Part shown: positions 18,268-58,212 of the stretch, piece after piece
Layout of the letters: each line of letters opens with the position of its first letter
Numbering within the stretch: position 1 is the first letter of the stretch
Origin: a virus
Length of the DNA stretch: 64,000 nucleotides
UHGV virus genome: UHGV-0018639
Strand: one strand, 5' to 3'
Notes under the pieces: generated by a model
Told to the model about the DNA's origin: nothing
Database searches by the model: none
The model's input: the letters and a program-made list of their open reading frames with translations, nothing else
Program-made: the position numbers and the translations under genes

Positions 18268-19728
18268 TTACTCACCCCTTACATGAGTTGTTATACGGCC
18301 ATATTCATCAATATCTGTTATTTCTTCAACCAGATGGTATGGGGTTCGGGAATATTTCTTCGCCAGAAATCCATCATCCTTTCTAATGCCACATACGATT
18401 ATCTTGTTGCCACGTGAGAAAGTGCTGCGACTGATAACGTGTTTCTTCCCATCAGGCCCTCTCTCCGAAATTTGCTTATCATAATTAGCAAATGCTTCGC
18501 CAAAAATTTTGACCTGAACAACGCCATCTTTTGTCAATAACGAAACAATTTTCTTTGCCTTATCCCTATCCAATACAGTTCCGCAAATACGATGTATTCT
18601 ATAAATCGGAACCGGCGCGCTATCACTATCCTTGCCGCGCGGTTTGAAGTAAGTCTCAACATCAGGCTGCTCTTTCAGTTTGAAGAAGTTTGAAAAGCCT
18701 TGCGCACGTTCATCAACATTTTGAAGTTCATGTTCGTGGAAATAACATGAAACGCTATCCATCTCCCACTTGCTTATTGAACCAAGACAATATTTATTCC
18801 AGATATCTCGCGTTAATCGCTCATTCACGGTATCTAGCAACTCATCATGATTTTCTTTTATCCACTTGCGGACATTATCCATATATTTCTTATAAATTTT
18901 GTCCCAAGCCGTGATGTTAATTTTGAAGCCACTTTCAGTTTCATTGCTTGCGCTCAAACAGTCAAGTGAAAAATTCTTATCAAGGAAATTCAATGCGATA
19001 TTATCTATGCCATAGAATGATGTGTCTAACTTCATTTTCTTGAGATACTTTGTGAAGTTATAAACACGACGCTCAAAATCAAGATTTTCGGGAATCAACC
19101 CAAAGTTTATCAACATTGCCATATTCTGAAGAGTGATACGTTTCTTTGTGTCGCTAATCAGGCTGACATATTCGCGCATTAAATCTACTCTATCACCAAA
19201 TGCATCAAAAGCTCCGCATTTTATGAGGTTTATCATTTGTGGCTTGTTGATTTTTACTTTGGAAAGAAAATCGGAGATTGAGTTATAGGGTCGATTTGCG
19301 ATTATGGATTTAACGATGTCTTCGCCGACTTTGACGATACCGCTCATACCATAACGAATTGTTGAATTTTCAACATCAGGAGAGAAAGTAAAAGTAGATT
19401 TGTTGATATCTGGAGGAGAAACCGAAATACCGGCCATTCGCATTTTACCGATTGCTGATGCAATTTTGCCATAGTTAGTCGTTTTGACTTTTTTCTTTTT
19501 CTTTTTTACATCAATTTTTTCTTCTTCGTCTTCATCTTCGTCGTCATCTTCGGTATCATCAACAAATTCTTCAATACAGTTGTTATAACTATATTCAATA
19601 ATATCTTCTGGCGTTTCGTCATCGTTCTCATCATTTGATTCATTGCCGCCGCTATCGCTAATCAAACACGCGCAATTCCAAAAAATTGTTGGAAAACGAT
19701 ATGCAAGATTCATTTCCTGCAAAGCCAC
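18268..19728 (-). CDS. DNA polymerase III alpha (DnaE-like), C-terminal portion (fingers/HhH/OB)
   Basis: GISVSPPDINKSTFTF matches the DnaE (V/I)LPPDIN.S..F motif. Long acidic linker. C-terminal OB-like region. Confidence 0.6.
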   Translation of the reverse strand: MALQEMNLAYRFPTIFWNCACLISDSGGNESNDENDDETPEDIIEYSYNNCIEEFVDDTEDDDEDEDEEEKIDVKKKKKKVKTTNYGKIASAIGKMRMAGISVSPPDINKSTFTFSPDVENSTIRYGMSGIVKVGEDIVKSIIANRPYNSISDFLSKVKINKPQMINLIKCGAFDAFGDRVDLMREYVSLISDTKKRITLQNMAMLINFGLIPENLDFERRVYNFTKYLKKMKLDTSFYGIDNIALNFLDKNFSLDCLSASNETESGFKINITAWDKIYKKYMDNVRKWIKENHDELLDTVNERLTRDIWNKYCLGSISKWEMDSVSCYFHEHELQNVDERAQGFSNFFKLKEQPDVETYFKPRGKDSDSAPVPIYRIHRICGTVLDRDKAKKIVSLLTKDGVVQVKIFGEAFANYDKQISERGPDGKKHVISRSTFSRGNKIIVCGIRKDDGFLAKKYSRTPYHLVEEITDIDEYGRITTHVRGE

Positions 19729-20855
19729 AAGCGAGTAGGAAAGAGTATGTGCTCGACAACTTACCGCACATAGTTTCTTATGCCAGATTTACTCTGTTGC
19801 GGTCTGGACTATACCATCAATTTCATTGTTTCCAATGAAAAAGTCCTTATTATAGTCTCTGAACGTTTTTCTTATCTCAATATATTTTCTATTCATACCA
19901 AAAGGCTTATTATAAACTAGAGCGATTAGTTTTAGGATATTGAACTGATTAGCGGTTTCAACTCTATATAAGCTATCTTCAGTTTTTCTTATATGTAAAT
20001 CTTCCATAAAGAAATTTTCTACTAAGATTTTTTCAATCCATTTGATAAATTCTTCAGATGCTGATACTATATAAAATTGAGCACCGCCATAAGAAGTTTT
20101 ACTGACACACCCATCACCGTCTATTATACCACGAATAATGTAAGGCAAATATCGCTTTTCTTGCTCATACAATTGCGGCGCCGGTATAATATATGTTTTA
20201 TTCTTTATTATACCATAACGGGCAGCCTCAGCTTGAAGACCCGGCCTATTTATCAATACCCTATATCGAGTTTGCTTTCCAGCTTGAGGATAGGCCTTAT
20301 AAGTTATTCCAATTCCTTTAGCTATAAAAGCAATAACATCTTCGTCCACCATATCCAACCCTAAGCCATCTCGATCGCTCAATAGATATCCATCCGTAAG
20401 CAGTAGCCCGATTAGATATGCATCGAACGGACTTTTGATTTCAGATAACGAATAGGTATATCCTCGACGATTATCTTGCGCTTGCCGTATAATTTCTTGA
20501 TATTCATCTGGATAATACTTTTTTACCTTGTCGGTTATAGACTTCTTTGTTTTATAACCATATCGACCCATTAGCTCTGAAACCGATGCCCCATTCTTAT
20601 ATTCTTCAACTAATTTTAGTTCATCTTCTTTTGATATTTTCTGATAACCCATAGTATATCCCTCCTAAGAATAAGTAGCCCTATTCAAATAGAAATACAC
20701 TAAAATAAGAAACTTCGCTGCGGATTATCCAATTCTAAATGATTTTACTATACCCTCTCTCTTTCTGAGAGGCCGCGATATTATTGCTAATATCGTTTAG
20801 TTATTTAGACTCTAAGGAAGTCCCCGCAATTTCAAGGATTTATACTCGTCTTGTA
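19729..20855 (-). mobile_element. intervening sequence in DnaE-like gene carrying a LAGLIDADG endonuclease (probable group I intron; boundaries approximate)
   Basis: Polymerase N- and C-terminal parts are contiguous ORFs on the same strand separated by ~1.1 kb. About 200 nt of structured non-coding flank lies at 20653-20855. Confidence 0.45.
19789..20652 (-). CDS. LAGLIDADG homing endonuclease (double-motif)
   Basis: Two LAGLIDADG motifs: LIGLLLTDGYL and IIRGIIDGDGCV. N-terminal HTH-like region. Confidence 0.8.
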   Translation of the reverse strand: MGYQKISKEDELKLVEEYKNGASVSELMGRYGYKTKKSITDKVKKYYPDEYQEIIRQAQDNRRGYTYSLSEIKSPFDAYLIGLLLTDGYLLSDRDGLGLDMVDEDVIAFIAKGIGITYKAYPQAGKQTRYRVLINRPGLQAEAARYGIIKNKTYIIPAPQLYEQEKRYLPYIIRGIIDGDGCVSKTSYGGAQFYIVSASEEFIKWIEKILVENFFMEDLHIRKTEDSLYRVETANQFNILKLIALVYNKPFGMNRKYIEIRKTFRDYNKDFFIGNNEIDGIVQTATE

Positions 20856-23360
20856 TTAGTCAAACGAGTACCCGCGCTGAACTCTGAACAAAACGTCCCA
20901 TACATAATGGGCAAAAGTCATATCACAACCTTTTTCTTTTGCATTTTCAAAATAGGCTTTTTCACATTCATCAAAGAGTTTGCCTTGTTTTTTTGCAATT
21001 GCCTTTCGACATTTATCTGCAAAAGTCAGATTATTCCCTCCGAGTCTTTCTTCCTGCAGAAGCTGCATCATTCCTTCTTGACTCTCACATATGCCACTCG
21101 TTATCGCATTATGTCCAATTAACCATTTTATATCTTCATTTTTTAATCCATATTGAATCATTTCGTCTCGCCATTCATTGATATTCAAACGATATCTTGC
21201 CCACATATCAAGTGGCTGCTCAGCTCCTTTTTCAGGAGCCATTAGACGAATTACTGAATTCAAAACAGCTAATTCACTAACGTTTTTAGGATGAGTTAGC
21301 GCTATGCCAGAAATGCCGCTCGGTTGTTCCATTTGAAACAAACTGGATATCTTATGATTCCAAACCATTTCCCACATTTCTGGTGCAGTTCGTTCAAGAT
21401 TATATATGCCAATTACACTTTCATAAGTTTCACGTAATGTTGGCTTTCGCTCTATATAACCATAATCACATAACAAATCTAGCTCATTGTGTATTTTATC
21501 AAGAGCTTCAATTGACAACATATCAATTTTGATCAGCGATGCGTCCTCCGCATCATGGAGTTCAAAAGCCGTAATGACCGTGCCATCAGGCGCGCGTGTT
21601 AGCGCTGTCGATTCCGTAAAAGGCTCGTCAACGAAGATCACTCCACCGGCGTGGACGCCAATGCCACAAATTAACCCCTCAATTTTTGAAGCAACTTCCC
21701 AAACATCACTGTAGGTTTTCATTGCTTCAACAAATTGCTTTACTGGCTTAAAACCTTTATCTTCATCACCCTCTATACATTGGGTAAGTGAGCGAAGTTG
21801 CCCGCGATCAGCTGGAATCAGAGATGCCAAATAGGATGCTACATCAACATCAATTCCCAAGCCACGGCAGGCCGTTAGAATTGCTGATTTAGATTTTTCT
21901 GTTTTGAATGTAATAACATTCGCAACTCTGTCTTCCCCATAAAACTCACGGAATTTCTGTAAAACTTGTGCACGACGTCCGCCTTCAATATCAGTATCAA
22001 CGTCCAATACCGACGCACGTTCGGGATTAAGAAAACGCCAATGAAATACTTGAGTTTCTTCTTGAATTGGATTTATCTGTGTTATATCTAATGCATATAA
22101 CAAAATAAATCCTGCACCTGAACCACGCCCCGGCCCAACAAGAGAACCAGCTTCCCAACATAAATCAATATTTTTCTGCAGATTCAGAAAATAAGTCGAC
22201 CAATGCGTGTGATTTGTTATCGACGAACGCCATGTATCATCAAGACAAATATTTATCTCATCATACGCTCGTTTGTTCTGCAAACCCGGCTTCCGTTGGA
22301 TGCCGTCAATAATCGCCCAAACCAGTTTTCTATCACCCCAATAATCAGAGTTATAGAAAGTTTCTAAATAAGGAATTTCATGTTTGAGAATATCATATGC
22401 TGCCTCATCTTCAGGAAATGTTTTCCAATAAAGTTCTGGAATTTTTAAGGGGCGCATTAGTGAAAAATCTTCACACATTTCACCTATCTTGAGAATATTA
22501 TAATATGCAACTTGAAGTTGTTCTTCGGTGAAATAATCGAAATACTCTTCTATTTCTTTCGTATTCATAAGATACGTAGTAGCATAGAAATCATCTACTT
22601 CTCGTTCACCATTCTGTGCATTGAGATATGCCTTATGAATCGCGCGATCTTCTTTTTTGAGATAATGGCTATCAGTTGTTATAACATAAGAAATGTCGTA
22701 TTTAGCTGATAATTCAAGCAACTTTTTATTTACATAAATTTGTTCTTTGTTATGACTTGGTTGCATTTCAAAAAAGAAATTACCGTGCCCAAAAAGTTTA
22801 TCCAAAGATAAAATCCAATTTTCAATTTTGCTATTGAGCGAGCTATCATTTCGTGCTTTGAGAAGCTGAGTAGGAAGACAGCCACCGAGGCAAGCTGTCA
22901 TTCCCACAATGTGTCCCGGATTAGCCCCTACGATTTCAAACAAATCACTATAATAAGTTGGCATACGACGCATACCACGCGCCATATAACTACGTAATCC
23001 TGCACGAGTAGATAATTCTCTAATTTGTTTATGCCCAATCGCGTCTTTTGCTAACAAAATAAAGTGATAATATTTATCTTGTCCTGTAATAAAATTCGAT
23101 GCATTTAACCCATTTCGACAAAGATAAATTTCATTTCCTTGAATAAATTTGAAATCAGGGTATTTTTCTTTTACTTTTTTATAATACTTTTCTGCCTTAA
23201 TCGCGCCAGATATTGACTCATGGTCTGTAAGAGCGACGACTTTATGACCCAACTCGATGGCGCGATCAATTAGGTCTGAGACTTTTATTATACAGTCTCG
23301 AAGCCTTTCATTAGAATAATCCGAGTGGTTATGTAATGACCCCGGATACGGAATATTCAA
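20856..23360 (-). CDS. DNA polymerase III alpha (DnaE-like), N-terminal portion (PHP and polymerase core)
   Basis: PHP domain start NIPYPGSLHNHSDYSNERL...ALTDHESISG. 834 aa. Consensus promoter upstream at 23393-23421. Confidence 0.8.
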   Translation of the reverse strand: MNIPYPGSLHNHSDYSNERLRDCIIKVSDLIDRAIELGHKVVALTDHESISGAIKAEKYYKKVKEKYPDFKFIQGNEIYLCRNGLNASNFITGQDKYYHFILLAKDAIGHKQIRELSTRAGLRSYMARGMRRMPTYYSDLFEIVGANPGHIVGMTACLGGCLPTQLLKARNDSSLNSKIENWILSLDKLFGHGNFFFEMQPSHNKEQIYVNKKLLELSAKYDISYVITTDSHYLKKEDRAIHKAYLNAQNGEREVDDFYATTYLMNTKEIEEYFDYFTEEQLQVAYYNILKIGEMCEDFSLMRPLKIPELYWKTFPEDEAAYDILKHEIPYLETFYNSDYWGDRKLVWAIIDGIQRKPGLQNKRAYDEINICLDDTWRSSITNHTHWSTYFLNLQKNIDLCWEAGSLVGPGRGSGAGFILLYALDITQINPIQEETQVFHWRFLNPERASVLDVDTDIEGGRRAQVLQKFREFYGEDRVANVITFKTEKSKSAILTACRGLGIDVDVASYLASLIPADRGQLRSLTQCIEGDEDKGFKPVKQFVEAMKTYSDVWEVASKIEGLICGIGVHAGGVIFVDEPFTESTALTRAPDGTVITAFELHDAEDASLIKIDMLSIEALDKIHNELDLLCDYGYIERKPTLRETYESVIGIYNLERTAPEMWEMVWNHKISSLFQMEQPSGISGIALTHPKNVSELAVLNSVIRLMAPEKGAEQPLDMWARYRLNINEWRDEMIQYGLKNEDIKWLIGHNAITSGICESQEGMMQLLQEERLGGNNLTFADKCRKAIAKKQGKLFDECEKAYFENAKEKGCDMTFAHYVWDVLFRVQRGYSFD

Positions 23361-37552: not shown

Positions 37553-37700
37553 GTATCTAGATTATCCTTTTCTTTATTTTCCTCAATTAACTCTTTAAAA
37601 TATTTATACCAATAGCAGGACTTATCTGGTAGACAAGTCCTACACATAGCAGTTTTGCAATTACAGAATTCAAACAAAGGGCATTTATTCCATTTATTAG

Positions 37701-39563
37701 TCATTCTCTGATCTCCGAAAAGTCTACATTCTGTATAATAAAGTCACGTCTTGGACTTACTTCACTTCCCATTAGGGAATAAAGTAAATCCATTGCTTCT
37801 TCATCATACTCTATCACGTCCATACGCTGATATTCAGGATCAAACATAGATTTACGTGCCTGATTGGGTTCAAGAGAACCGAGGCCCTTATTACGCTGAA
37901 CTTCGCCCTTCACCTTGGTTTTATTTGCTTCATATTCTGCATCAGTAAAGAAATAAGACTCAGTTTTTCCATTATTAACAATCCACAAAGGAGAGCGCAG
38001 CCAACACAGTCTGCCCTCACGAATAAACTGAGGAGCAATATGCGCTAAAGCCGCCATAATAAGCAGGCCAATATGATAGCCGTCACTATCAGCATCGGTA
38101 CAGATAGCAAGCTTGCCATACCGAAGTTTTTTTGCATCATACTTTTCGGGTACAATATTCATAGCACTTAATAGCAATTTAATTTCTTCATTCTCATAAA
38201 CCTTCTCATCAGGATTAGATAAAGCATTGATAATTTTACCTCGAATGGCCATAATACCATACTTAGTATAATCACGGCCCTGCGCCAAGCCTCCTAGTGC
38301 AGAATCACCCTCAGCAATCAACAGAGTGGAGTCTTCTCCCAAAAATTCCGCGTCTTTTAATTTATCGCTCGAAAAAACTTTTCGTTTTTGATTTTTTTCA
38401 ACTTCTTTAGAAGCATTTAAAACTTGCTGACGAGTGCGCTCAGCCGCTTGATCGGCCTTAGCCTCTTTTGTTAAAAGCTCCATAACCTTATCAAACTCGT
38501 CACGGTGCTTTCGCTCAAACTCCTCAAGCATTTGGCCGGTCGCACGTTGACACAAGCCACGGAGAACAGGATTGTTTACTTTTGTCTTTGTTTGATCACT
38601 GAAACTAGGCTGAGGAACTTTGCAGCTTACTGCATAAAACAAACCTTTTCGAAGAATATCAGGTGGAACTTCACCCTTTATTTTCTTTTTGAAAAAGTTT
38701 GTAAGTGCTGTCTTTACGCCTGTAAGACTAGTACCACCTGCGGTATTTTCAAGTCCATTAGTAAAAACGTGCCATTCTTCATTGCGTCCATTTGTCCAAC
38801 ACATCACAATTTCAGCTTCTACGTTATCTTCTTTCATTATAACGTGGAGAGGGGTTTTGTTTAGCGATTTACCCGCGCAAGTTTTCATAAAGTCAAGCAA
38901 TCCATTCTTTGCGTGGTACTGAACTGTTTCCTCTTCCCCTTTTATATGATTATTCAAAATAAAAGTAAGAAATGGATAAAGATAAGACCAGTTGCGACAC
39001 ATTTCTTTTATATCAGAAAATTTGATGTTTATTGGCTCAAGATTATACACTTCTTGAGAGGGAATGAAATCAACAAACATCCCATGTGCTTTAGGATTAT
39101 TAGGTTCACCGACTGTAAGTGAAACTTTATTTCCTTTTTCAAGTATCAATTCACATTCTTTTCCATCTCTCATTGATACCGCGCGAAACTTATCACTCGA
39201 CAAAGCAGTGCCCTTTGCGCCAATGCCATTGAGGCCACCAACATTTTGATAAATTTTATCATTGAATTTGCCACCACTATGAGGTAGTGTATAAATTGCT
39301 TCAAGAGCATCAATACTATCATCTCTCAAACCAAATGGACAGCCTCTTCCATTATCAAGCACGGTAATTCGATTTCCTTCATATAAATCAACAACAATGC
39401 GATCACAGTATCCCATAGTTGCTTCATCTATTGAATTTGTGACGATTTCGCGCACGCACTGTAAAACACCTTGATTATCTGCACTGCCCATATACATGGC
39501 TACGCGAGTTCTTACCGCATCTCGAAAGTTTAATGTTTCAATTGAATTGGCATCATAACTCAT
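37701..39563 (-). CDS. type II DNA topoisomerase, B (GyrB/gp39-like) ATPase-TOPRIM subunit
   Basis: GHKL ATPase region GLNGIGAKGTALSS. TOPRIM LIAEGDSALGGL. Consensus promoter at 39596-39624. Confidence 0.8.
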   Translation of the reverse strand: MSYDANSIETLNFRDAVRTRVAMYMGSADNQGVLQCVREIVTNSIDEATMGYCDRIVVDLYEGNRITVLDNGRGCPFGLRDDSIDALEAIYTLPHSGGKFNDKIYQNVGGLNGIGAKGTALSSDKFRAVSMRDGKECELILEKGNKVSLTVGEPNNPKAHGMFVDFIPSQEVYNLEPINIKFSDIKEMCRNWSYLYPFLTFILNNHIKGEEETVQYHAKNGLLDFMKTCAGKSLNKTPLHVIMKEDNVEAEIVMCWTNGRNEEWHVFTNGLENTAGGTSLTGVKTALTNFFKKKIKGEVPPDILRKGLFYAVSCKVPQPSFSDQTKTKVNNPVLRGLCQRATGQMLEEFERKHRDEFDKVMELLTKEAKADQAAERTRQQVLNASKEVEKNQKRKVFSSDKLKDAEFLGEDSTLLIAEGDSALGGLAQGRDYTKYGIMAIRGKIINALSNPDEKVYENEEIKLLLSAMNIVPEKYDAKKLRYGKLAICTDADSDGYHIGLLIMAALAHIAPQFIREGRLCWLRSPLWIVNNGKTESYFFTDAEYEANKTKVKGEVQRNKGLGSLEPNQARKSMFDPEYQRMDVIEYDEEAMDLLYSLMGSEVSPRRDFIIQNVDFSEIRE

Positions 39564-54634: not shown

Positions 54635-54721
54635 GCTGAGTTCCCATAGTGGTCGATTGGAGCGGTTTTGTAAGCCGCAGACTTCGTGTCCGCATCAGTT
54701 CGAATCTGATACTCAGCTCCA
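54635..54721 (+). tRNA. 87-nt tRNA with long variable arm and UGU (Thr-type) anticodon in the 7-nt loop register
   Basis: Perfect acceptor gctgagt/actcagc. Perfect T-arm atcag-ttcgaat-ctgat. Anticodon arm gcggt-ttTGTaa-gccgc, which needs a U-G closing pair; GUA lies one nt 3'. 15-nt variable region agacttcgtgtccgc. CCA encoded. Confidence 0.55.
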
Positions 54722-54843: not shown

Positions 54844-54872
54844 TTGACTTTTTCAAAAAATCTTGATATAAT
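54844..54872 (+). promoter_or_regulatory. sigma70-like promoter driving the large noncoding region and tRNA-Met
   Basis: aaaaTTTGACTttttcaaaaaatcttgaTATAATatatac. Perfect -35 and -10 boxes with a 17-nt spacer. Confidence 0.6.
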
Positions 54873-54896: not shown

Positions 54897-55616
54897 AAAG
54901 TCAAAAGGAGGACGATGCTAGTGCCACCTACACGTGGTATCCTCTGTTTTCGCTAAGAGCGCTGGCATATATTCAATTAAATAATACTAACTCAGTGAAG
55001 ACGGAATTCGATGTTCCGGCTGAGAAATTCTAGCTAGCACAGCAGAAACGAAACAAGGATACTTGTGGATACTGGACTGGGAGGCCATCGAGAGATGAGC
55101 CGAAGTAGAGCGGTTGCTCAAGTGGGAAGAAGAGCAGGAATTGTGCTGAGTGAATCGCAAGTAAACGCAGCCGTGGAGTGGCGGGCGCAATAGATAGCTT
55201 GGTGAATAGCCAAGCCGAATCCAAGTTAGGTTTTAGTTGGTGACTGTGACAATCCTTGGAAAAGCCAATAAGCTCGTTCCGTTGAGACGACAGGGAATGT
55301 GAAATCTGTCTTTGACACTCTACAGTATCCGAGTAGCGGAACACAACGGGGACTTTAGATTAAAAAGATGTTGACAGTAATAGAAATTACTACTTTCTGA
55401 ACATCCCGTGAAAGGTAGAGGTAATCAATCCTCTGGCGGATTAGGCGACATTAGACACTTGGGGTTATCCAAGACTAACAAGTCAATGTTGTTGCTGGGG
55501 TAAGAAGTGTATGGGCGACGGCCTGTATGCTCAGACTTATCTCCCGCGTGGCAGAATATGCTTGAAGGTTTATCGAGGTAGGGCGAAGGCCCAGTAATAT
55601 TTAGTTGGATTTATAT
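54897..55616 (+). ncRNA. candidate large structured noncoding RNA (about 720 nt) co-transcribed with tRNA-Met
   Basis: No credible ORF. GC content is locally elevated with many local hairpins. Strong consensus promoter upstream. tRNA and terminator immediately downstream. Context matches that reported for GOLLD/ROOL-class large phage ncRNAs. Confidence 0.35.
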
Positions 55617-55689
55617 GGCAGGAAGAGAAGGTTCTCCGTTTGGCCTCATAAGCCAGACTTCGTAGGTTCGATTCCTACTCCTGCAACCA
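55617..55689 (+). tRNA. tRNA-Met(CAU) (possibly initiator-like; alternatively a lysidine tRNA-Ile2)
   Basis: Anticodon arm tttggc-ctCATaa-gccaga. T-arm gtaggttcgattcctac. Acceptor ggcagga/tcctgca with a 1:72 G-A mismatch. CCA encoded. Confidence 0.6.
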
Positions 55690-55714: not shown

Positions 55715-55857
55715 AAAAAATGTCTTGAACGACAGGAGGTTTTGCTTATGGACATAACAAAATCTAATGAGGACTTTAGTCCAACGAACAAGGCAAAGAG
55801 TTGGGCTTCTCTATAAAAAAGCCCTCGTTTAAAAAAAATGAAAGGAAGTAAGAAAAA

Positions 55858-56286
55858 ATGAAGTATTATAGTGATGTTCTTCATAGTTTATTTGATACTC
55901 AGGATGCGCTCGAAAAAGCCGAAGCTGAGAAGAAAGAAAAAGATGACGAAAAAGTTCGTCAGAAGGAAAATGCTGATAAGCTCAAGGCCGAGGATAAGAA
56001 GCGTTTTCTTGAGCTAAGAGAGAGGTATTTTAAAGCAAGTGTTGAGTATGAAGCATATTTTGATAAATTGCTGAATAACTACTCATTTAACACCATAATG
56101 GGCTGGGTGTCTGAAGCGGCTACTAAAAAGACCCAGACCCAGACCCAGATTAAGACGATAGATCAGACGGCTGAAAGTATTTTTGATGCTTGCAAGTCAG
56201 CTAAAACTGTCAAAACCGCAAAAACGGCGCGTGAGCCTGAAAATTTGGGAGAAATTCTTATTCGTATTTTTGAGGATATGCAGTAA
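55858..56286 (+). CDS. hypothetical protein (charged coiled-coil N-terminus)
   Basis: RBS gaaaggaag upstream. 142 aa. Confidence 0.35.
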   Translation: MKYYSDVLHSLFDTQDALEKAEAEKKEKDDEKVRQKENADKLKAEDKKRFLELRERYFKASVEYEAYFDKLLNNYSFNTIMGWVSEAATKKTQTQTQIKTIDQTAESIFDACKSAKTVKTAKTAREPENLGEILIRIFEDMQ

Positions 56287-56289
56287 GAA

Positions 56290-56847
56290 TTTTAAATAAA
56301 TCAGGTTACTTGATCATCGGGTTTCCTGCGGAGTTAAAGCTAAAACGTTAGCGGTGAATATGGCCATTCCCGCAAGCTCGGCGACTTGTTAGGCAATCGC
56401 GCTGATGTAAATTATTGATAAGGGAGCTTTGGTATAATTTATTCACTGGGGCTTTCCAAAAGTCGGACTCAAGCCTAAACTGAGTTCGCAGTGCTGAGGT
56501 CGGTATTCGCTCGGAGAGGATGCGTTATTGAGCTAATTAGATTAGCATCAATGTGAGGCAACGGTGGCCAACTCTTAGAGAGCCACGCGATAGAGTTATG
56601 TTAAAAGGCAATACTCAGTATCGGTGCTACTAGGGTTGATAGACAAGTAGTAAAAGTCAGGTGAAGATAATACCGGCTGACATAATTGGGACGTAGCTAT
56701 AGGCGTAGGCCGTGCCAGAACTAAAGTGTGCGGCACACGAAACCCAAGTCAGATGCGGGCGATTGAAACGGCGCCCTCAACCCATATAAGGTTTTACAAG
56801 AGATTTTCCTTGCGTTAGGCTAAAAAATCTCTTTTCTATATAAATTT
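56290..56847 (+). ncRNA. candidate large structured noncoding RNA (about 560 nt) immediately 5' of tRNA-Gln
   Basis: No ORF. Noticeably higher GC than the flanking sequence. Numerous hairpins. Ends in tRNA-Gln plus terminator. Second such region within 2 kb. Confidence 0.35.
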
Positions 56848-56922
56848 AGAGGTATAGTGTAATTGGCAACACATCGGCCTTTGACGCCGTATTTATAGGT
56901 TCAAGTCCTGTTACCTCTGCCA
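56848..56922 (+). tRNA. tRNA-Gln(UUG)
   Basis: Acceptor agaggta/tacctct. D-arm gtgtaattggcaacac. Anticodon loop ctTTGac. T-arm ataggttcaagtcctgt. CCA encoded. Confidence 0.7.
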
Positions 56923-56926
56923 ACAG

Positions 56927-56962
56927 CTCCACATTAGAAAAGCCTAATGTGGACTTTTTTAT
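56927..56962 (+). terminator. rho-independent terminator
   Basis: ccacattag-aaaagc-ctaatgtgg followed by acttttttat. Confidence 0.6.
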
Positions 56963-57665: not shown

Positions 57666-57986
57666 ATGGATAAATATACTGGCTATTACGAATGGCGCCC
57701 ATCAGAGCAAGGGCTTGAGGACTTTTATTCTGGCTTTTTTACTCCTGCGGGGATGGGTCTGGTAGAAAACCAGTATTTGATTATCTATGACGCTGATGGC
57801 AAAGTTATAGATAAATATTTTTGTAAGAACAACGAGTTTGAGAAAGTTCATTATATGACACTCCAAAGCGATTACTGCGGCGTTATCAAACCGCGCAATG
57901 TGTATCAGGAACTAGCAATTCACGCACTGTTAGATAGGCGTGTTCCTGTAAAGGCGCTGGGTGGTGTTTTTGGTTCGGGTAAATAA
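57666..57986 (+). CDS. phoH: PhoH-like ATPase, exon 1 (ends in Walker A GSGK)
   Basis: IKPRNVYQELAIHALLDRRVPVKALGGVFGSGK parallels PhoH I.P.t.gQ..yi.a......vfgiGpAGtGKT. Stop immediately after the K. Confidence 0.6.
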   Translation: MDKYTGYYEWRPSEQGLEDFYSGFFTPAGMGLVENQYLIIYDADGKVIDKYFCKNNEFEKVHYMTLQSDYCGVIKPRNVYQELAIHALLDRRVPVKALGGVFGSGK

Positions 57987-58212
57987 CTTGCCCCTTCTTA
58001 GGGCGACCTAAGAATGAAAATCGCGTGAATTGCTGGAAACCTAAGCCGCGAGGTATGGTAATCAGCAGCCAAGCCGTTTAACAACGGAAGGTTCAACGAC
58101 TATCCCGACAGGGAGTAGGGAGCAATCCCGAAGTGCGCGACAACTTTCAAAGTTGATGATATAGTCTAATCCCCTTTTGAAATATCGGGAAACCGAGGGT
58201 ATAAATGAAGGA
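57987..58212 (+). mobile_element. ORF-less group I intron in phoH (boundaries approximate)
   Basis: About 225-nt non-coding insert exactly at the P-loop. Contains ggtatggtaatcagcagccaagcc, resembling the Tetrahymena intron segment GGUAUGGUAAUAAGCUGACGG...CAGCCAAGUCC (P5/P6-J6/7). Also contains gatgatatagtct. Confidence 0.55.

Follow-up and report, generated by a model that had tools for sequence, protein, structure and literature searches.

The region described here lies in a 64,000-nt stretch of the virus genome UHGV-0018639 (the window), which comes from an uncultured human-gut phage of ~130 kb and in which genes for topoisomerase II, a helicase, a DnaE-like polymerase, a ClpP-like protease and PhoH are found. 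The polymerase is ~38% identical to those of SPbeta-like Bacillus phages, which are the nearest cultured relatives, and the host is thus likely to belong to the Firmicutes. We noticed that two ORFs match DnaE-like polymerase PHROGs, at 18268-19728 and 20856-23360 (both on the minus strand), with a 287-aa ORF between them (19789-20652); the polymerase gene of the window seems to be split or interrupted.

A 13-tRNA island extends over 50.3-56.9 kb of the window, and the order of genes at the locus is EcoRI-like methylase, tRNAs, ROOL RNA, tRNA-Met, a ~135-aa ORF, a ~560-nt gap, tRNA-Gln, ClpP-like protease and PhoH (Table 1). The gap, at 56290-56847, is the subject of this report and is bounded by an ORF of 142 aa in the window (end, 56286) and by tRNA-Gln(UUG). 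Its first-pass annotation, made from the sequence letters, had described it as free of ORFs, as GC-rich relative to its surroundings and as followed by tRNA-Gln and a strong terminator. The boundaries given there were correct, no ORF longer than 46 aa was found on either strand of the region, and tRNA-Gln(UUG) and the intrinsic terminator, which closes the RNA-tRNA unit, are both in place. The GC content is indeed higher within the region (0.46-0.47) than in the flanks (0.36-0.42), but the rise is only modest.

The neighbouring element, 1.2 kb upstream, was identified with Rfam as a ROOL RNA (268.9 bits). It is preceded by a promoter with an 11/12 match to the consensus, and tRNA-Met begins where it ends; in the relatives, ROOL ends 0-4 nt before tRNA-Met. 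The unit of large RNA, tRNA and terminator occurs twice in tandem at this locus, i.e., as ROOL/tRNA-Met and as new RNA/tRNA-Gln.

Table 1. Positions of the new RNA, its predicted parts and the neighbouring features in the window
Feature	Position	Strand	Description
tRNA-Thr(UGU)	54635-54721	+	87 nt
ROOL promoter	54844-54872		
ROOL RNA	54967-55612	+	Neighbouring element, 1.2 kb upstream
tRNA-Met	55612-55689		Begins where ROOL ends
22-codon ORF	55749-55817	+	Strong AGGAGG RBS
142-aa ORF	55858-56286	+	Directly upstream of the new RNA region
5' hairpin	56302-56328	+	Follows the ORF stop codon immediately; consensus helices 1-2
5' domain	56329-56400	+	Helix 56331-35/56375-79 around a mini-hairpin and hairpin 56351-59/56366-73
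Conserved unpaired linker GCGCNGAUGUAAAUUAUUGAUA	56401-56421	+	17 of 22 columns invariant; unpaired in the consensus
Two hairpins	56422-56489	+	56422-33/56445-57 and 56462-73/56480-89
Domain II	56490-56628	+	Stacked helices 56490-97/56621-28, 56502-11/56607-15 and 56517-21/56598-602
Domain III	56629-56785	+	Closing helix 56633-39/56777-83 around two small hairpins and further helices
3' terminal hairpin, followed by a U-run	56798-56837	+	Lower stem AAGAGAUUUU/AAAAUCUCUU, internal loop, 3-bp apical stem
tRNA-Gln(UUG)	56848-56922	+	ARAGORN; Rfam 63.4 bits; 10 nt past the hairpin/U-run
Strong intrinsic terminator	56928-56953	+	10-bp stem, 6-nt loop, then CTTTTTTATA
Group I intron in the PhoH gene	57971-58189	+	Splits the PhoH gene

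Several other features of the locus and of its relatives should be noted. The 22-codon ORF between tRNA-Met and the 142-aa ORF is followed by a terminator-like hairpin (GGGCTT...AAGCCC) and may encode a small protein or a leader peptide. The product of the 142-aa ORF, which one source labels a coiled-coil DUF342-family protein, is unusually variable: its identity among the phages ranges from 44 to 100%, while the genes on either side are ~95% identical. Conservation is seen at both termini and variation in the centre, which is suggestive of diversifying selection or of an exchange of modules. The group I intron of PhoH is polymorphic. It is absent from the relatives L003 and L041, where PhoH is intact (281 aa), carries a LAGLIDADG ORF in L035-L037 and has ~830 nt of extra sequence in L001 and L004, and it looks like an actively mobile intron.

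Two tRNA genes were noted as well. The tRNA-Thr(UGU) of the window has an apparent long variable arm and a class II-like body, which is unusual, as bacterial class II tRNAs are those for Leu, Ser and Tyr. The 86-87-nt form of tRNA-Thr was found in 8 of the 10 relatives checked, and no tRNA-Thr was seen in the other two (L043 and L020). A recoding tRNA or a decoy tRNA is possible, and so is an issue of the ARAGORN assignment. A tRNA-like gene of the relatives L028 (1393-1479) and L029 (1296-1382) scores 47.6 and 47.0 bits, respectively, with the Rfam model of tRNA-Sec, whose threshold is 47, and could be either a long-arm tRNA or a true phage selenocysteine tRNA.

Distribution and conservation of the new RNA

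The search for homologs started from four IMG/VR contigs that were reached through the neighbouring proteins. The upstream ORF had 40 homologs (44-100% identity), which were used to reach ENA and Logan assemblies, and a pattern scan of metagenomes added four human-gut contigs of the same phage clade. The new RNA was found in 28 contigs that are annotated as, or are consistent with, human-gut metagenomes, and it always occupies the same position. All 28 contigs belong to a single clade of phages of ~125-133 kb. They yielded 18 distinct full-length copies, which are 81-99% identical to the copy in the window, and tRNA-Gln(UUG) lies directly 3' of the new RNA in all 10 relatives checked.

Outside this clade, pattern scans, a profile HMM and a covariance model identified no remote homolog. 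Four pattern scans of viral collections, in which invariant cores or loop and junction bases only were used, returned just the four sibling IMG/VR contigs, and blastn of the region found no match in GenBank phages or in plasmids. The candidates L013-L016 were rejected as chance pattern matches in coding DNA, as were matches in Desemzia and Rubripirellula that came from a pattern scan of a genome collection and also lay within coding DNA. The ClpP-like neighbour had three homologs, and the one with 34% identity (L017) has no gap upstream. L051-L053, which were drawn from the family alignment of the upstream ORF, contain tRNA arrays but no comparable ORF-free gap, and neither nhmmer nor the covariance model of the new RNA matched them.

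Nine of the 10 relatives checked carry ROOL together with the new RNA. In the tenth (L043), ROOL is cut to a 249-nt remnant (884-1132; 81.5 bits) and the new RNA is intact, which indicates that the pair is not obligatorily coupled. The decay of ROOL where the new RNA is kept also suggests that neither RNA simply duplicates the function of the other. The ROOL remnant of the L042/L043 lineage spans the whole model with internal deletions and scores below the gathering score.

The divergence between the window and four relatives is 1.3-6.8% in the new RNA and 3.7-4.5% in ROOL. In the adjacent genes for the ClpP-like protease and PhoH it is 19-39% at third codon positions, compared to 0-4.6% at first and second positions. 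The low divergence relative to third codon positions demonstrates that the new RNA is constrained like a functional RNA or protein and is not a neutral spacer. The new RNA and the neighbouring ROOL are under equally strong purifying selection.

Consensus structure and its support

A consensus structure was obtained with RNAalifold from alignment A5 of the 18 sequences. It was edited by removal of a spurious terminal helix and by replacement of two weak helices with the register 56709-16/56726-34. The resulting consensus consists of 134 pairs in 22 helices with several multistem junctions, and 98.7% of its cells are paired. Double changes were found in 24 pairs (96 cells), and 13 helices contain at least one of them. 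When the 3' partners were slid by 1-3 columns as a control, only 3-6 pairs and 4-12 cells showed double changes and 32-41% of the cells were paired. In 500 column shuffles, neither the pairing nor the double-change counts nor the covariation score rose to the observed values, and the unpruned structure gave the same covariation picture. In some pairs the alternative states are nearly balanced, such as 56565/56585 (U-A in 8 sequences, C-G in 10), 56384/56397 (G-C in 9, A-U in 8) and 56506/56610 (U-A in 9, A-U in 8). Several of the double changes may represent few events, or recombination between lineages. The insertions and deletions fall in loops or remove whole hairpins, and a 3-nt insertion lengthens a stem junction. 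Furthermore, 401 G·U cells were counted vs. 16 A·C cells, and pairing falls to 82.9% on the opposite strand. The excess of G·U over A·C indicates that the RNA is read from the plus strand, like all neighbouring genes.

The abundant stems to which the first-pass annotation had pointed do not distinguish this region from chance when a single sequence is considered. The minimum free energy of the plus strand has a z-score of -1.1, and 12 of 100 shuffled sequences fold equally well; thus, stems in a single sequence are no evidence by themselves. One of the two stems quoted as examples (gtgcc...ggcac) is in the wrong register, with 76.7% of cells paired in the 18 homologs vs. 91% for 56709-16/56726-34. 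The other (gtcag...ctgac) is 100% conserved, but a long-range alternative is conserved just as well and the two cannot be told apart: CUGAC at 56677-81 has two invariant GUCAG partners (56656-60 and 56748-52), which pair with it equally well and are mutually exclusive. As judged from the aligned sequences, the non-randomness of the region rests on comparative evidence, i.e., purifying selection and covariation.

On this evidence, the new RNA is predicted to fold on the plus strand into ~22 helices in three domains, many of which are backed by compensatory changes. The 5' hairpin varies in sequence among the relatives and is formed in all of them. All three of its outer pairs show double changes (UA/CG, GC/AU), 98% of its cells pair, and it may be a 5'-terminal stem for stability or processing. 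The 5' domain that follows is nearly invariant, with 61 of 73 columns (84%) unchanged in the 18 sequences. Its hairpin 56351-59/56366-73 has an invariant loop, AUGGCC, inside the palindrome UGGCCA (56359-56364), and its hairpin 56381-86/56395-400 exchanges GC and AU with a 9:8 split. The helices of the 5' domain other than 56381-400 never vary, and pairing in them is predicted. Altogether five helices are invariant, which comprise most of the 5' domain, the two small hairpins of domain III and the hairpin 56757-76; given that all the homologs come from one clade with at least 81% identity, these helices are predicted only. For the conserved linker, no complementary target beyond chance was found within the window, and a pairing with 56434-56442 was rejected, as it is broken in divergent members.

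The two hairpins of 56422-56489 have double changes at three pairs, and 97.7-98.8% of their cells pair. Every helix of domain II contains at least one compensatory pair, including the junction hairpins 56526-36/56542-53 and 56562-68/56582-89. The hairpin 56526-53 occurs with three unrelated sequences, all of which pair, and 8 of its 11 pairs are doubly changed. Domain III, from which the covariance model R1 was built, contains the long-range helices 56677-81/56748-52 and 56686-90/56743-47 and the hairpins 56709-16/56726-34 and 56757-65/56769-76. The pair 56690/56743 changes from GC to AU, and the hairpin 56709-34 shows double changes, with 7-8-nt insertions and one larger insertion confined to its loop. 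The mini-hairpin at 56691-56700 is optional, as an exact 10-nt deletion removes it in eight members. At the 3' end, the terminal hairpin is a perfect 10-nt inverted repeat that is present in all members. Its apical stem covaries (GCG/CGC, GCA/UGC or GUA/UAC), and the hairpin may act as a weak intrinsic terminator or protect the 3' end.

Other candidate pairings were examined. The helix GUAAAUUAU/AUAAUUUAU, predicted from five sequences, is broken in divergent members, and the inverted repeats I1, I2 and I5 either clash with covariation-supported helices or lie in variable sequence. Of the candidate closing helix AAAACGUUA/UAAGGUUUU, the divergent members keep only AAAC/GUUU. No conserved pseudoknots or kissing loops beyond chance were found in the 18 sequences, in which, close as they are, such contacts are hard to exclude; the best pseudoknot candidate, UUAGG(C)/(G)CCUAA, was within chance.

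Two readings in which the region is not an RNA gene were also tested. A pseudogenised protein gene, which had been named at the outset as a finding that would speak against a structured RNA, was looked for and not found. The region could still hold a small protein or what is left of a decayed coding gene, and a 28-aa ORF on the minus strand (56475-56561) is open in 18 of 18 copies, the only ORF for which this is so. It was rejected as a gene, however, as it begins with TTG, has no RBS and runs against the direction of all the genes around it. Its peptide is not conserved, being replaced wholesale at the covarying RNA hairpin, and its variable sites are spread evenly over the three codon positions (13/11/11). 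In addition, the insertions and deletions of 2, 3, 7, 8 and 10 nt in the region fit loops, not reading frames. A coding origin, decayed or small, is therefore given next to no credence.

The region might also be a DNA-level element, such as an origin, a packaging site or a cluster of promoters, or else the long UTR of a flanking gene. AT-poor and intergenic, it lies downstream of ORF142 with no canonical terminator in between, and it contains the motif TTGATA...TGGTATAAT at 56415-56444. Compensatory changes that involve G·U pairs and are confined to one strand would, however, be meaningless for duplex DNA. No iterons or repeat arrays were found in the region, and the tRNA and the strong terminator separate it from the downstream ClpP-like gene. 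The TATAAT of the motif lies within a covarying hairpin (56422-33/56445-57) and is degenerate in relatives (TCTAAC or TTTAAC), and thus it is not a conserved promoter. We consider a DNA element or UTR highly improbable. Between the ROOL promoter and the new RNA, no sigma-70-like consensus promoter was found; a weak TTGAGG-17-TAAATA was noted by eye at 56271-56299, where it overlaps conserved coding sequence.

The compensatory and strand-specific structure and the lack of any coding signal are what is expected of a structured ncRNA, and we conclude with high confidence that the plus strand of the region encodes an RNA element that is conserved, structured and non-coding. The initial proposal of a large structured ncRNA tied to the downstream tRNA is supported by the missing coding signal, the conservation at the nucleotide level, the covariation on the plus strand and the presence of tRNA-Gln in 10 of 10 relatives.

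Comparison with known large RNAs

The two noncoding elements of the locus had been described as dissimilar and possibly of different RNA classes, and covariance-model screens had been proposed for both. Such screens with the 4227 families of Rfam covered the whole window at gathering thresholds and the region itself at E ≤ 10; they identified the upstream element as ROOL and gave no match in the region. The new RNA of the divergent copies L043, L020, L030 and L029 likewise had no Rfam match at E ≤ 10; ROOL in the loci of divergent copies scores 250-280 bits, and the gathering threshold of its model (RF03087) is 99.1 bits. Neither the ROOL model nor the GOLLD model (RF01998, with its universally conserved 3' region) matched any of five copies of the new RNA at E ≤ 10. 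In turn, R1 matches only itself in the window and not the ROOL next door. The covariance models thus do not cross-match, in agreement with the view that the two elements are different classes of RNA. A literature search found no paper in which the core sequence of the new RNA is printed, and a survey of structured RNAs in IMG/VR reported motifs of 29-151 nt only (PMC10690425). Given the lack of both an Rfam match and a published core sequence, we rate the new RNA as a new family, and the best reading is that of a new family of large structured phage ncRNA of tRNA islands that is neither ROOL nor GOLLD.

ROOL and GOLLD are phage RNAs found near tRNA islands (PMC5737381, PMC12286853), and the new RNA has such a location as well. 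Both are abundant and self-assemble into RNA-only cages (PMC12286853), and ROOL has been described with three pseudoknots and six multistem junctions (PMC5737381). Like the new RNA, ROOL (~580 nt) is a large, multi-domain ncRNA found near the tRNA islands of phages and prophages (PMC5737381, PMC12286853). It abuts tRNA-Met as the new RNA precedes tRNA-Gln, and the two are under similar purifying selection, but their helix architectures differ and no pseudoknots were detected in the new RNA. ROOL is also spread over several phyla, whereas the new RNA was found in one gut-phage clade only. GOLLD, too, is a large RNA of phages and prophages that often lies beside tRNAs and has conserved and variable parts; its 5' half is variable, and tRNAs are sometimes embedded in it (PMC12286853). 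The new RNA is, however, ~300 nt shorter, and its most conserved block is at the 5' end, while that of GOLLD is at the 3' end.

A more divergent relationship might escape sequence searches. The new RNA would then be a paralog of ROOL or GOLLD that has diverged past sequence recognition and kept the same fold and function. The shared tRNA-island niche, the similar size, the fusion to a tRNA and the true ROOL 1.2 kb away fit such a paralog, as does the variability of the GOLLD 5' half (PMC12286853). We nevertheless find it very improbable. No match at E ≤ 10 was obtained in five copies, even though the ROOL remnant of L043 still scores 81.5 bits; the domain III model does not match the adjacent ROOL; and the pseudoknots, three in ROOL (PMC5737381), were not detected here.

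Other large RNAs also offer points of comparison. Staphylococcus phage K (Kayvirus) has abundant unclassified lncRNAs beside its tRNAs, for which a resemblance to ROOL and GOLLD was stated in terms of position only (PMC9241854). They are long and, like the new RNA, lie beside tRNA genes, in this case those of a large Firmicutes phage (PMC9241854). In the phage K genome (NC_005880), we noticed an unannotated gap of ~970 nt (37678-38650) directly upstream of tRNA-Asp/Phe/Trp, which fits the published lncRNAs near its tRNA genes. Both tRNA loci of phage K lie in the first 50 kb of its genome, where the model R1 had no match. OLE and raiA resemble the new RNA in being large, highly structured and strongly conserved ncRNAs without assigned biochemistry. 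They are, however, chromosomal and not linked to tRNAs, whereas the new RNA is phage-borne and has no match to their Rfam models. OLE has also been seen by cryo-EM as an RNA-only homo-oligomeric assembly.

In bacteria, large multi-domain RNAs with long invariant stretches are typically ribozymes, and the new RNA has the size, the multiple domains and the long invariant stretches. It also adjoins a tRNA, in a genome that already has a group I intron. It could accordingly be a ribozyme that acts on the tRNA or on its own transcript, i.e., a self-processing or a tRNA-processing or tRNA-modifying one. The searches gave no sign of this, as the five copies had no match to RNase P RNA, group I/II introns, small self-cleavers, T-box or other Rfam leaders, ARAGORN found no tmRNA, and the context is not exon-like. 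To our knowledge, ROOL, GOLLD and OLE were once suspected to be ribozymes on similar grounds, and catalysis has been shown for none of them. We consider a ribozyme improbable.

Possible mode of action and significance

The new RNA would be co-transcribed with tRNA-Gln, as ROOL abuts tRNA-Met 1.2 kb upstream. RNase P cuts the 5' end of every tRNA, so that in a joint transcript the cut would release the upstream RNA with its 3' end at 56847. The 3' end may otherwise be set by the RNA's own weak terminator-like hairpin, and this hairpin (56798-56833) and its U-run could terminate a fraction of the transcripts. The covarying 5' hairpin and the 3' hairpin would protect the ends of the transcript, and the RNA would accumulate during infection as a stable, compact particle that acts in trans. 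The likeliest sites of sequence-specific contact, whether with another copy of itself, a protein or a different RNA, would be the palindromic loop and the rest of the near-invariant 5' domain, together with the invariant linker. It is speculation that the loop AUGGCC in the palindrome UGGCCA mediates self-association.

What is released by such a cut need not have any further role, and the region could instead be a cis-acting structured 5' leader of tRNA-Gln that serves read-through, processing or stability and is spent after cleavage. The fusion to tRNA-Gln is invariable, the terminator-like hairpin and U-run 10 nt before the tRNA form a possible attenuator, and the two exclusive, equally conserved partners of CUGAC at 56677-81 would permit a switch. 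We regard a leader of this kind as unlikely for several reasons. With ~500 nt and 22 helices, the RNA far exceeds the needs of known tRNA leaders. Among the other 12 tRNAs of the island, only tRNA-Met is preceded by anything comparable, namely ROOL, an accepted stand-alone RNA. The 5' domain lies 450 nt from the tRNA, and tRNA processing could hardly account for its invariance; in addition, neither T-box nor any other cis-regulatory model of Rfam matched. With its length of ~500 nt, its many domains, its near-invariant 5' domain and its invariant linker, the RNA far surpasses the requirements of a tRNA leader, and in these features it resembles ROOL and GOLLD.

Thus, by analogy with ROOL and GOLLD, ~56302-56847 of the plus strand is probably the gene for a structured ncRNA of ~500-550 nt that would stand alone and act in trans, and not a mere tRNA leader. 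The functional likeness to ROOL and GOLLD that may be drawn is one of genomic niche and size only. Any specific biochemical role of the stand-alone RNA, be it in assembly or in catalysis, can be proposed but tentatively. It is possible, although we hold it with little confidence, that the new RNA is a further class of ornate phage RNA whose fold is unrelated to those of ROOL and GOLLD and which has been put to a convergent use, either as a tRNA-linked particle that self-assembles (e.g., via the palindromic loop) or as a catalyst in infection.

Very few RNAs of more than ~400 nt from bacteria or phages are known to us that combine a complex, conserved fold with the lack of a known function, and OLE, GOLLD and ROOL are chief among them. 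The new RNA is a possible addition to this short list. The family is phylogenetically narrow, being confined to one clade of gut phages, and its host phages are common enough to have left at least 28 contigs in human-gut metagenomes. As a second and unrelated large RNA in the ROOL niche, it provides an independent case for comparison, and the features common to both RNA-tRNA units, such as the fusion to a tRNA, the processing and the timing of expression, may reveal what the phage gains from them. If the new RNA does prove to be a convergent class of ornate RNA, the existence in one operon-like tRNA island of two unrelated large RNAs, both fused to a tRNA of their own, would point to a shared function related to tRNA or translation for the whole group.
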